Assembly (NCBI GenBank): GCA_963848295.1
Contig: CAWKDB010000002.1
Coordinates: 1,152,001 to 1,216,000, forward strand
From: an uncultured delta proteobacterium
GTDB taxonomy: Bacteria > Myxococcota_A > Polyangia > Haliangiales > Haliangiaceae
Reading direction: 5' to 3'
DNA: 64,000 nt
In this document: piece after piece, positions 27,849-30,653 of the stretch
Layout: each line of letters starts with the position of its first letter
Position numbering within the stretch: the stretch's first letter is position 1
Position numbers and translations under genes: made by a program
Notes under the pieces: model-generated
Database searches by the model: none
What the model was told of the DNA's origin: nothing
The model's input: the letters and a program-made list of their open reading frames with translations, nothing else

Positions 27849-28057
27849 CGCTGCGGCTGCGGCTGCGGCACCGGCACCGGCAACGGCTGCGGCGACGGCT
27901 GCGGCACCGGCAACGGCTGCGGCTGCGGCAACGGCTGCGGCGACGGCACCGGCCCCGGCACCGGCGACGGCTGCGGCACCGGATTCGGATTCGGATTCGG
28001 ATTCGGATTCGGATTCGGATTCGGATTCGGATTCGGATTCGGTACGGATTCGGCTCC
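27849..28057. repeat. Degenerate hexamer tract 1 (21 x GGCNNC, then 10 x GGATTC)
   Basis: Units GGCTGC/GGCACC/GGCAAC/GGCGAC/GGCCCC at 27855-27980, then perfect GGATTC at 27981-28040. Confidence 0.95.
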
Positions 28058-28107
28058 CGCTTCGGCGATCCGGCAAAGGGTGCCGGAATCAGCGCCGGCG
28101 CGCGCGC

Positions 28108-28428
28108 TCACCGCGTGAGCCTGAACAGCATCGCGCGCACGCGATCGAGTGGCGTCTCGATGGCGGCCAAGTCCTCGGCGGTGATGTAGCCGCGTGCCCT
28201 CGCGATGAGCAGTGCGGTCGACAGCTCGCGCGCGCTGCCGAAGGCGCGGCGGAACATGTCGGGCCGATCGAGCCCGGCGCGCGCGCTCGCCTCGGCGATG
28301 TTGAGCGCAATGCTCTCGGCGGCGCGGCCGATCTCGTCGGCGAGCGACTTGCGCCGCGATCGGAGCTTCGGCTCGACCGGGGCGAGCTGTTCGAGGACGG
28401 TGAGCGATTGAGCGAGGACGTCGAGCAT
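28108..28428 (-). CDS. Four-helix-bundle protein (23S rRNA IVP / bAvd-like), copy 1
   Basis: LADEIGRAAESIALNIAEA...FRRAFGSARELSTAL family signature; AAAGG RBS; 106 aa. Confidence 0.9.
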   Translation of the reverse strand: MLDVLAQSLTVLEQLAPVEPKLRSRRKSLADEIGRAAESIALNIAEASARAGLDRPDMFRRAFGSARELSTALLIARARGYITAEDLAAIETPLDRVRAMLFRLTR

Positions 28429-28449
28429 GGTGTTGCCTTTCGTGGATGA

Positions 28450-28651
28450 GCGGACGCCCGATTCGCCGGGGCCGTCTCGCCCGTCGCGCCGCACTCGCGC
28501 CGGCGCCGTGACGAGCGCAGGCACAAATCTCCGCACGCGTCGGTCGATCCAACTCTGCGGCGGTCGTTCGCACGCGTCGGTGGTCTCGGCGCTCGGCGCG
28601 GTGCTGGCGCGAAGCGGCGCAGGGCGACGGCCCCGGCGAATCGGTGCGCCG
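28450..28651 (-). ncRNA. Putative structured 5' leader (long rod-like hairpin) of four-helix gene 1
   Basis: Perfect 19-bp basal stem CCGATTCGCCGGGGCCGTC/GACGGCCCCGGCGAATCGG (28458-28476 with 28626-28644) plus inner stems; homologous to 28929-29125. Confidence 0.7.
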
Positions 28652-28668
28652 CGAGCGCGAAAGGTGGC

Positions 28669-28896
28669 GGCATCGGCATCGGCATCGGCTGCGGCATCGG
28701 CTGCGGCTGCGGCATCGGCATCGGCTGCGGCATCGGCTGCGGCTGCGGCGACGGCTGCGGCTGCGGCGACGGCTGCGGCTGCGGCGTCGGCTGCGGCTGC
28801 GGCTGCGGCTGCGGCTGCGGCGACGGCGACGGCGGCGGCTGCGGCGACGGCGACGGCTGCGGCTGCGGCTGCGGCGACGGCGACGGCGACGGCGAC
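28669..28896. repeat. Degenerate hexamer tract 2 (38 x GGCNNC)
   Basis: Unbroken phase of GGCATC/GGCTGC/GGCGAC/GGCGTC/GGCGGC between the two divergent leaders. Confidence 0.95.
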
Positions 28897-28928
28897 GGCC
28901 TTGGAACACTCGACGCTCCTTCGCTCGC

Positions 28929-29125
28929 GCCGATGGGCGGAACGTCTCTCTCGCCCTGCGCCGCTTCGCGCTTGTCCCGCGCCGAGCGCCGAGTGCGCCG
29001 GCGTGTGAGAGCGACCGCCGCGGAGTTGATCGGCCGGCGAGTGCGGTGGTCAGCGCCCGCGCTCGTCACGGGACCCGCGCGAGTGCGGCGCGACGGGCGA
29101 GAGAGAGACGTTCCTACCCATCGGC
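28929..29125 (+). ncRNA. Putative structured 5' leader (long rod-like hairpin) of four-helix gene 2
   Basis: Basal stem GCCGATGGG..GGAACGTCTCTCTC / GAGAGAGACGTTCC..CCCATCGGC; the core aligns with the reverse complement of 28458-28644. Confidence 0.7.
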
Positions 29126-29146
29126 CACTCACCTCGGAGGATCTTC

Positions 29147-29470
29147 ATGTCGTTCTACGCCCTCGACTTCGCCCTCGCCGTCCTGCACCAGCTCGCCCCG
29201 ATCGAGGCCAAGGTCCGCCGCACGCGCAAGTCACTCGCCGACGAGATCGTCCGCGCCGGCGAGAGCGTCGCGCTCAACCTCAGCGAAGGCCGCATGCGCA
29301 TCGGGCTCGATCGCCCCGACTTCTTTCGCCGCGCCGCCGGCAGCGCGAGCGAGCTCACCACCGCGCTGCTCATCGCGCAGGCGCGCGGCATCATCTCCGC
29401 CGAGGACTTCGCGGCGGTCGACGAGCCGCTCGACCACGTCCGCGCCATCCTCTGGCGGCTCACGCACTAG
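29147..29470 (+). CDS. Four-helix-bundle protein (23S rRNA IVP / bAvd-like), copy 2
   Basis: LADEIVRAGESVALNLSEG...FRRAAGSASELTTAL; GGAGG RBS; clear paralog of copy 1. Confidence 0.9.
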   Translation: MSFYALDFALAVLHQLAPIEAKVRRTRKSLADEIVRAGESVALNLSEGRMRIGLDRPDFFRRAAGSASELTTALLIAQARGIISAEDFAAVDEPLDHVRAILWRLTH

Positions 29471-29645
29471 CGTTTGCGCCGGCCTCCGCGCCGGCCAACC
29501 CGATTTTTCGGCACCCTTCGCGCAACGCAAACGACAGCCCGGTGCGCCCGGCGGTGCCAGGCGTAAGCAGGATGTCAGCGCGAGAGCTCGCCTCGTAAAC
29601 TGCAGGATCCCGATAAACGTGTCACCAATGTCTTGAGCACTTCCA

Positions 29646-30653
29646 CTAGCGCTTCGGCTTCCGCACAGGCTTCGGCTTCGGCTTCCGCACAGGCTTCGGG
29701 TTCGGCTTCGGGTTCGGCTTCGGCTTCGGGTTCGGGTTCGGCTTCGGCTTCGGCGTCGGCGTCGGCGTCGGCGTCGGCGTCGGCGTCGGGGGCTTCGGCT
29801 TCCGCTTCGGCTTCGGCTTCCGCACAGGCTTCGGCTTCGGCTTCGGCTTCCGCTTCGCCTTCGGCTTCCGCACAGGCTTCGGCTTCGGCTTCCGCTTCGC
29901 CTTCGGCGAGCTCGGTGCCACCTCGTCGACCGGCTGGATCGCGGCAAGCACCGCCGCCTCGCCGACGATCGTGCGTCGTACCGGCGAGCCGTCGTCGTCC
30001 TCGCCTTCGGCGAGAGGTTCGCGCTTGCCGAACAACGCGAGCATGTCGTCGGCGGTCACGCGTCCCTTGTAGCGCAGCCCGACATCGACCGCGCCGAGCA
30101 CCGGGAAGTTGTCCTCGGTGACGAGCGCGTGCGCGCGGACCGCGGGCAGCACCGCCGAATAGTCGTTGTAGACGAAGTGCACGACGCCGCTCGCCTCGAG
30201 CGCCTCGCCGACGATGACCTCGCCCGAGGTCGTCACGTGGTTCACCTTCGCCACGCCGCCGACCGCGAGCAGCGAGTAGGCCATCATCGGGCCGATGTAG
30301 CTGCCGCCGATCTCGGCGTTGCCGGTGACGACGAGGATGCCGGCGTTCGCGACGTCGCCCTCGACGTGCAGATCGCCGACGATCGTCCGGCGCTGACCGC
30401 GGGCGATCGACAGCGCGGGATAGCGGTGCAGCACGCTCGCCGCGGCGTACACGCGATGCGCGACTTTGATACCGCCGTAGCGCGCGCCCTGCGCCATCCC
30501 TTGCAGCGCATCGCCGAATAGCTTCGCGAGATCGTCGTCCGGGCCGCGGGCGAGCAGGAGCTCGAGATGCGCGGTCGTGATCTTGCCCAGCATCGGATCG
30601 GCGTCGAGCGCGTCGCGAATCTCGGCGAGCGAGGCGAGCAGGCGATGTCCCAC
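29646..30653 (-). CDS. Beta-helix-like (polymer-forming/bactofilin-like) protein with Lys/Pro-rich tail
   Basis: [35 protein letters not shown] repeats; tail encoded by hexamer tract 3. Start uncertain. Confidence 0.6.
29650..29904. repeat. Degenerate hexamer tract 3 (about 42 units, mostly GGCTTC/GGGTTC/GGCGTC/CGCACA)
   Basis: Seen directly; same plus-strand polarity as tracts 1 and 2. Confidence 0.95.

Follow-up and report, generated by a model that had tools for sequence, protein, structure and literature searches.

A multicopy cassette of paired four-helix-bundle genes, long palindromes, and hexamer arrays in an uncultured myxobacterium, possibly a transposase-less selfish element

Layout of the cassette and its copies

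We have analyzed a stretch of 64,000 nucleotides (the window, G000:C2:1152001-1216000) located on contig C2 of G000, a metagenome-assembled genome (MAG) of an uncultured myxobacterium, which is 85% complete and comprises 7,779,524 bases on contigs including C2, C10, and C11. Between two protein-coding genes of the window we found a cassette consisting of two divergent genes of the PF05635 family, two palindromes, and arrays of hexamer units. Ten composite copies are present in this genome, and the corresponding site is empty in close relatives; quite probably, the cassette is mobile or duplicating. We propose, with about even confidence, that this region represents a copy of a DNA cassette that is selfish, lacks a transposase, and has palindromes which fold as DNA and are recognized by the Avd-like proteins it encodes.

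Gene A (28108..28428, minus strand) and gene B (29147..29470, plus strand) encode proteins of 106 aa and 107 aa, respectively. Both scored above the cut-offs of PF05635 (52.6 bits for A and 44.9 bits for B; cut-off 33.8) and TIGR02436 (50.0 and 45.7 bits; cut-off 24), and the proteins share 68% identity, confirming the two divergent paralogous four-helix-bundle genes named in a preliminary description of this DNA. An AlphaFold model of B, calculated with 16 relatives, contains helices at residues 4-26, 28-50, 56-79, and 85-106, with a mean predicted local distance difference test score (pLDDT) of 95.4 and a predicted template modeling score (pTM) of 0.87. The profile of the 16 relatives matched 2GSC in the PDB with an E-value of 7e-15. 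This was the sole match; bAvd, which is a nucleic-acid-binding pentamer, was not reached by the sequence profile in the PDB at E ≤0.01. Both translations contain, as judged by eye, the motif RxxxSxxxNxxE. A longer form, GxxRxxxSxxxNxxE, is quoted in a passage on 18 genes of PF05635 type in cas loci (PMC3936711); its leading G is E in A and B.

Upstream of each gene lies an imperfect hairpin of about 190 nt. Palindrome A (28454..28647, minus strand) and palindrome B (28931..29124, plus strand) were delimited by folding, by alignments, and by matches to a covariance model, R1, at G000:C2:1180454-1180647 and G000:C2:1180931-1181124, respectively. Folded as RNA, they reached -149.6 and -153.4 kcal/mol (z-scores of -5.6 and -6.0), and 0 of 200 shuffled sequences were as good. 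The distance from hairpin to gene is 21-29 nt for A and B; hairpin B ends 21 nt 5' of the gene B ATG, at a GGAGGA. Both halves form an inverted repeat in which the gene arms (28113-28424 and 29154-29465) are 77% and the leader arms 84-85% complementary. The homologous hairpin reported beside each gene is thus present.

Tandem Repeats Finder (TRF) detected period-6 arrays at 27850-28053, 28668-28899, and 29651-29907. All three hexamer tracts reported previously were therefore found, but the third belongs to the target site and the right-hand gene and lies outside the insert, as described below. Satellite 1 (27838..28053, plus strand) forms the left end of the insert and consists of (GGCNNC)n followed by a (GGATTC)12 run (TRF rows 27850-27982 and 27980-28053). 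It is missing at the empty site and so moves with the insert; in every other copy, this end is an array of 20-470 bp. Satellite 2 (28668..28899, plus strand) occupies the center of the insert, its length varying from 123 to 421 bp across the ten copies. Between satellite 1 and gene A, a 3' motif (28054..28107, minus strand) was recognized through the inverted repeat as homologous to the first ~50 nt past gene B; it is 86-97% identical in six of nine other copies. The right end of the insert (29471..29645, plus strand), likewise missing at the empty site, comprises the B 3' motif and about 130 nt of unique sequence; it is 70-83% conserved in five other copies, and its first 51 nt are 88% conserved in copy c6.

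A scan of positions 27000-31000 against Rfam (E ≤1) gave no rRNA and only chance miRNA-like matches on repeats. Direct repeats in 27700-30100 were hexamer arrays and short chance pairs only, with no pair of template and variable repeats (TR/VR). Together with a search for RVT_1 domains, these results agree with the earlier statement that neither rRNA nor a reverse transcriptase (RT) nor a TR/VR pair adjoins the genes. A scan for sigma-70 promoters and intrinsic terminators found none, and no promoter-like site was found upstream of the hairpin. We also considered whether the 3' motif might be a sigma-54 promoter; inspection by eye spoke against this, as GG and GC are not correctly spaced.

When the entire assembly was searched with leader B, ten loci of 94-100% identity were identified, each with an adjoining A-type leader. 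The ten composites are 91-100% identical, lie on contigs C2, C10, and C11, and have unrelated flanks; homology of the other copies to the window stops at the arrays. Their order is fixed: array, leftward gene A, palindrome A, central array, palindrome B, rightward gene B, and usually a 3' region and a further array. Outside the composites, one pair has diverged (C11:697.6-699.1 kb), one unit stands by itself (C10:1110.8-1111.4 kb), and one locus is a fragment (C2:904 kb). A one-off inverted duplication, the outcome that would have spoken against a repeated unit, is excluded by the ten composites together with these three loci.

The genome contains 31 PF05635 matches. Eight PF05635 genes outside the cassettes show no period-6 tracts within 1.5 kb, no unusual upstream fold, and no match to the hairpin model; the architecture therefore marks a subfamily. 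The association of hairpin and arrays with PF05635 genes thus holds for the ten composites and for many loci of relatives, but not for these eight genes. No match was obtained in plasmid and phage collections with a query of hairpin and gene B in distant mode.

Leader B of the window (28925-29146) is 100% identical over 222 nt to G000:C11:317908-318129, whereas the adjoining genes differ by 4%. Furthermore, in copies c3 and c8 the apical segment of the B hairpin is of the A type. Judging from these alignments, gene conversion has probably occurred among the copies. Open reading frames (ORFs) are intact in all nine full-length copies of gene A and in all ten of gene B; one gene A copy is truncated. 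The mean ratio of nonsynonymous to synonymous substitution rates (dN/dS) was 0.12 for A (36 pairs) and 0.16 for B (45 pairs), with dS of 0.18-0.21. These values place the copies of both genes under purifying selection.

Occupied and empty sites in close relatives

The window's insertion site was compared with two relatives, the metagenome contig L166, whose left-hand protein is 86% identical, and G129, the closest species genome, whose flanks are about 87-91% identical. G129 was found through the left flank; the right-flank protein had no orthologue in 60 genomes of the genus at E 1e-20. In both relatives the two genes flanking the cassette are contiguous, with only tract 3 between them, so that the empty sites looked for in relatives do exist. 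At the empty site, the stop codons of the convergent genes overlap within ATCTAG (L166 3430-3436; G129 L169), and beyond them lies a solo array, about 120-130 bp in length and of GGCTTC/GGCGTC type, which is read as a lysine-proline (KP)-rich tail of the right-hand gene.

In the window, the junction sequence CTAGCG occurs twice, at 27832..27837 and at 29646..29651, as alignment to the empty sites of L166 and G129 shows. Each copy keeps the stop codon of one flanking gene, the left copy that of the left-hand gene (27311-27835) and the right copy the minus-strand stop of the right-hand gene. The extra DNA is therefore 27838-29645, that is 1808 bp. Since tract 3 occupies the same place and frame in L166 and G129 without the insert, satellite 3 (29652..29907, minus strand) is older host sequence; the insert itself comprises tracts 1 and 2.

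Satellite 3 encodes the KP-rich C-terminal tail of ORF 29646-30653 (minus strand). This ORF has no Pfam match; the tail is 85 aa long and rich in KP, NP, and TP. The tail of the L166 orthologue is shorter and different but in the same frame and with the same stop, and the satellite appears to be translated as a fast-evolving protein tail. On the other side of the cassette, the gene at 26518-27309 (plus strand) encodes a fusion of a response-regulator receiver domain with DUF4388; it was matched in 89 of 91 genomes of the genus, in most of them with 80-91% nucleotide identity, and was used as the synteny anchor.

Seven cassette sites were compared with G129, namely the window's site, c1, c3, c5, c6, c7, and c10. 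None of them holds an intact orthologous composite: one is a shared degenerate copy, one a remnant, two are empty, two are flank-exchanged, and one is replaced. The c1 site is filled in both genomes; the G129 copy is degenerate with a 68-bp gap in gene A and is 78-87% identical, compared with 91.5% for the flank. The c3 site is empty in G129, the contiguous flanks being separated by 35-45 bp with no array. At the c5 site, 174 bp remain, in which parts of gene A and of the adjoining 3' motif can be recognized, and at the c10 site a 1.3-kb segment of a histidine-kinase gene stands in place of arrays and cassette. At G129:C854:2880-3268 (compared with L186 and L185), no cassette is present; instead, 12 bp between apparent convergent stops connect the c7 left flank with the c6 right flank. 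Contig breaks terminate the remaining two flanks in G129, and in G000 the flanks joined here sit on different contigs. The junction represents a flank exchange at cassette sites.

A further G129 locus, on contig C52, was rejected as a cassette array: besides a PF05635 fragment it contains a coding repeat rich in glycine. In this locus (L196, 1500-1900), the PF05635 fragment has no hairpin and is followed by two direct repeats of about 25 nt; the segment lies between sequences that are 955 kb apart in G000.

The mobile or duplicating module suggested earlier is thus upheld as a unit that is inserted or deleted between close relatives and is present in ten copies.

Palindromes, hexamer arrays, and associated genes

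The covariance model R1 was built from 22 sequences of this genome and then run on loci of relatives. In the alignment of 46 matches, which was fitted to R1 and thereby favours the structure, 90.9% of cells were paired, as compared to 74.8% in shuffled alignments and 28-51% with slid partners. Compensatory changes on both sides were found in 41 of 50 model pairs, which provides the covariation in a larger alignment that the preliminary description had called for. Two blocks, GCCGAGCGC and GCGCTCGTCACGG, were invariant in 46 of 46 sequences aligned with MAFFT; the 13-mer invariant block occurs 32 times in this genome, 23 times within cassettes. Among the copies, identity was 92.7% for palindrome A (45 pairs) and 95.4% for palindrome B (36 pairs); given a dS of 0.18-0.21, the palindromes diverge two- to fourfold less than synonymous sites.

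R1 matched 23 sites in this genome, all in cassettes, and the hairpin never occurs alone here. At E ≤1e-5, it was detected in 25 of 60 genomes of the same uncultured Kofleriaceae genus, a lower bound since 25 candidates were scored per genome and the hairpin-bearing G005 was missed, and in 0 of 40 genomes from 21 other families; these tallies count the unpublished genomes G010 and G066 as scored. In G037, which belongs to another family, PF05635 genes are flanked by arrays and the hairpin match is weak at best.

A hidden Markov model of the hairpin identified 64 hairpins in 61 loci of relatives; these loci were picked by hairpin or gene match, so the proportions are no census. A PF05635 gene follows 41 of the 64 hairpins at a distance of 20-292 nt. 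Nine are followed, 321-908 nt downstream, by a DUF222-HNH endonuclease gene, an assignment based on weak Pfam matches below cut-off in a recurring domain order; these hairpins with multicopy DUF222-HNH genes lie at L111, L117-L120, L123-L125, and L154 (genomes G023, G003, G005, and G043). Two more stand upstream of a GxxExxY/PDDEXK_3 nuclease gene (L107 and L151), and 12 have no recognizable downstream gene. Upstream of the two DUF222-HNH homologues of this genome, no R1-type hairpin was found. A convergent pair of distinct paralogues, in the order array, hairpin, gene, gene, hairpin, array, occurs in several species, at L129, L144, L149, L156, L164, and L165.

A 3' motif of the A/B type follows only one of 42 genes in relatives. 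The unit of leader, gene, and 3' motif proposed previously can hence be retained for the hairpin and the four-helix gene, which recur together in ten composites and at 41 of 64 hairpins in relatives, but not for the 3' motif. The motif is confined to the A/B family of this genome; it is a leftover of the duplication that gave rise to A and B and does not belong to the general unit.

Does the hairpin function as RNA or as DNA? In the stems of 38 sense rows, 1447 Watson-Crick pairs, 51 G-U, and 64 A-C combinations were counted. For a sense RNA leader, G-U should outnumber A-C; the observed numbers fit a DNA palindrome better. The antisense fold was at least as stable as the sense fold in 37 of 46 sequences. 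As DNA, palindrome B gave z-scores of -8.6 for the top and -7.7 for the bottom strand. We infer that the hairpin is kept as a DNA-level palindrome, or at least with no preference for the mRNA strand. The pairing of the structured RNA leader described previously is conserved, but these strand comparisons argue against its being a leader RNA.

The alternative would be an RNA leader-protein regulatory pair, in which the hairpin is a 5' untranslated structure and maybe an RNase III substrate, the protein binds it and controls its own mRNA, and spread occurs by ordinary duplication. The close spacing would suit such an arrangement: in most of the 41 four-helix units, just 20-90 nt separate the hairpin from the start codon, and at gene B it ends close to the GGAGGA. 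The strong covariation is also in its favour, as is the report that stems of intervening sequences (IVS) in rRNA are substrates of RNase III (PMC4990558). Nevertheless, we consider it unlikely. Besides the lack of a G-U excess and the stability of the antisense strand, the hairpin also stands 321-908 nt ahead of DUF222-HNH genes and, at 12 of 64 loci, has no recognizable downstream gene at all, no promoter-like site or Rfam match was detected, and autoregulation would leave both the insertion polymorphism and the arrays unexplained.

Genome-wide, 51 arrays (GGHNNC, at least eight perfect units) were found; 28 of them lie within 700 bp of 13 cassette loci, which make up 35,489 of 7,779,524 bases (0.46%), and 23 are solo. 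This association of arrays with cassettes is far beyond chance. In relatives, 27 of 41 four-helix hairpins have an array no more than 400 bp away on their far side, but only one of 23 with other or no cargo does, and the DUF222-HNH and GxxExxY/PDDEXK_3 hairpin loci are almost always devoid of hexamer arrays. The arrays are thus tied specifically to four-helix cassettes. Possible origins of this link are a target preference, slippage beside a fragile palindrome, or synthesis by the element itself.

Among 1058 units from 30 arrays of the ten copies, 87% have C at position 3 and 97% at position 6, and the variation falls on positions 4 and 5, where C is scarce (5% and 11%); the GG at positions 1-2 is fixed by the way units were picked. 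The unit composition of the central array differs among copies. Long runs of a single unit and higher-order periods of 12, 18, and 36 nt point to slippage. One array contains seven-base units, which break any reading frame. Similarity of arrays within and between loci was 0.29 and 0.26, respectively, which gives no clear signal. Two other repeats in the window were recorded, a 42-nt unit in three tandem copies with 95% matches (12032-12158) and an AT-rich 8-nt unit, AATTGATC, repeated 3.2 times (33965-33990), the latter unusual in GC-rich DNA.

The arrays also allow an explanation with no transposition, namely that the cassette is copied and lost by homologous or microhomology-mediated recombination between arrays, of which this genome has many. 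Arrays would then be the sites of insertion as well as of deletion, and the proteins would have a host function unrelated to spread. Several observations are in line with it: 23 solo arrays of the same type exist in the genome, every copy is flanked by arrays in one orientation relative to the composite, the window's site is a solo array in the relative, and there are both the flank exchange between c6 and c7 and the traces of gene conversion. On the other hand, insertion by homology should not duplicate 6 bp of unique target, the arrays are just about 70-80% alike, the c3 site and the junction of c7 with c6 have no array in the relative, and purifying selection acting on ten gene pairs that are redundant with one another makes more sense for proteins that work for the element. 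We regard this explanation, too, as rather improbable.

Relation to known elements and interpretation

The closest counterpart is the IVS of 23S rRNA carrying an S23p/PF05635 ORF, as in Coxiella burnetii and Leptospira. The Coxiella burnetii IVS is described as a 428-nt selfish element in helix 45, which contains a decaying S23p ORF and is excised by RNase III (PMC4990558); according to the same source, PF05635 ORFs sit within rRNA IVS. ORFs of the 23S_rRNA_IVP type are reported to be scattered among rRNA insertions of candidate phyla radiation (CPR) bacteria, with unknown function (PMC11270868). Like the putatively selfish cassette, the IVS is a small selfish element combining a long, stem-forming inverted repeat with an ORF of the same family (PMC4990558), its occurrence is patchy among relatives, and its mobility enzyme is unknown. 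The cassette differs in lying between protein genes and not in helix 25 or 45 of 23S rRNA, in a hairpin that closes on itself upstream of the ORF instead of around it, and in its heterotypic inverted gene pairs with hexamer satellites; moreover, its ten dispersed copies are under purifying selection, in contrast to the decaying Coxiella ORF (PMC4990558). The present assembly contains no 23S gene. Three 23S genes of relatives are 2988-3022 nt long, 63-97 nt above model length, with no large insert. Identity with an rRNA IVS was rejected because no rRNA is present at the locus and the flanks are protein genes; a relationship of the cassette family to IVS-type elements is likely.

PF05635 is given as the most frequent Pfam family beside diversity-generating retroelements (DGRs) and as resembling Avd, which itself has no Pfam attribution; in the same account, Avd (4DWL) and 2GSC are treated as homologous (PMC10053308). 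By this Pfam/CDD grouping, the cassette proteins share the fold family of the DGR protein Avd (PMC10053308), and nucleic-acid binding may be assumed for the family. Unlike Avd genes, the cassettes have no adjacent RT and no TR/VR pair, and identity with a DGR was rejected for these reasons. RVT_1 matches occur at four positions of the genome (C11:619500, C11:721418, C2:795818, and C10:2116505), none of them near a cassette, and three RT genes are present. Some 800 bp from one of them (G000:C2:795818-797472; L004, L094) lies a 126-aa PF05635 gene, one of the eight outside the cassettes; neither hairpin nor array accompanies this pair, which has the appearance of a normal DGR core. A nearly identical PF05635 gene occurs at C10:3467581.

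It is very improbable that the arrays are of retroelement type, with Avd-like proteins recruiting an RT that copies a GGCAAC-type template under adenine mis-incorporation into (GGCNNC)n: variation confined to positions 4 and 5, the tie of the arrays to PF05635 cassettes instead of the hairpin, the three RT genes, and the frequency of PF05635 beside DGRs would fit, but no RT is near any cassette, the RT with a PF05635 neighbour has no array, identical-unit runs and longer periods point to slippage, a solo array lies in a coding tail with no cassette, and no invariant template array was identified.

Integron attC cassettes resemble the element in combining a small ORF with an imperfect palindrome that is conserved in structure, has conserved unpaired bases and no sense-strand RNA signature, and accompanies varied cargo. 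Here, the palindrome is about 190 nt long, copies are dispersed singly and not in tandem, and the insert is bordered by a short direct repeat and satellites. The best match to the integron integrase model TIGR02249 in this 85%-complete genome scored 73.8 bits at a cut-off of 265, and identity with an integron was rejected because no integrase exceeded the cut-off. Miniature inverted-repeat transposable elements (MITEs), repetitive extragenic palindromes and bacterial interspersed mosaic elements (REP/BIME), and other palindrome-associated non-autonomous elements are likewise multicopy, intergenic (between convergent genes where checked), palindromic, and devoid of a transposase of their own. 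In contrast to them, the cassette carries two conserved, selected protein genes, and its palindrome is internal, not terminal, and never alone in this genome. A full-text literature search returned no title or abstract describing this architecture.

Taking these comparisons together with the site turnover between the two closest genomes and the one flank rearrangement at cassette sites, we return to the selfish, transposase-less cassette. It would move by insertion, the alternative being that it is lost by deletion only. The palindrome would act as DNA and not as RNA, and the two proteins would bind the palindrome and/or the arrays and be needed for propagation or retention of the cassette. 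We infer these roles of folded DNA and of binding or retention factors from the outcome of the strand test, from the selection acting on both genes, and from the link of the family to the nucleic-acid-binding Avd. The cutting and joining enzyme would be supplied in trans and not be encoded in the insert, and the satellites might grow by slippage beside the palindromes.

Several points weigh against this proposal. There is just one clean pair of filled and empty sites with a direct repeat, CTAGCG, as the other junctions are too diverged or rearranged to read a target-site duplication. On the left, this junction is not clean: 12 of the 13 nt with which the insert begins also match the target, and an imperfect 11-bp duplication with an 8-bp slip is another way to parse it. 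No outgroup fixes the polarity, and had the insert been precisely deleted in the G129 lineage, the sites would look just as they do; in either case, the 6-bp repeat is the trace expected from insertion with target duplication. Terminal inverted repeats were not seen, and the insert ends are not complementary. The insert contains no transposase, recombinase, or nuclease, the two PF05635 genes being its only ORFs with family matches. The evidence on where the flanking arrays come from is contradictory: the relative has one at the window's site but lacks one at the c3 site. The tight spacing of hairpin and start codon in most four-helix units would suit an RNA leader as well. Finally, the genome is a MAG of 85% completeness.

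A bolder possibility, which we find doubtful, is that the cassettes form a new class of mobile elements whose sole genes are an Avd-like pair recognizing a folded 190-nt palindrome and seeding or targeting hypervariable (GGCNNC)n satellites. We know of no function of PF05635 proteins outside DGRs, and to our knowledge the route by which IVS-type elements spread has never been worked out. If the proposal is correct, the so-called IVS proteins of PF05635 would gain their first function outside DGRs, as mobility or retention factors of transposase-less cassettes, and the spread of rRNA intervening sequences and the scattered IVP genes would be accounted for. The cassette offers a dissectable form of PF05635, being compact and combining a defined boundary, a palindrome with invariant bases, selected protein pairs, and a linked hypervariable satellite. 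By adding repeat tails beside genes, leaving behind solo arrays or remnants, and lying at flank exchanges, such cassettes would reshape the genomes of uncultured soil myxobacteria.

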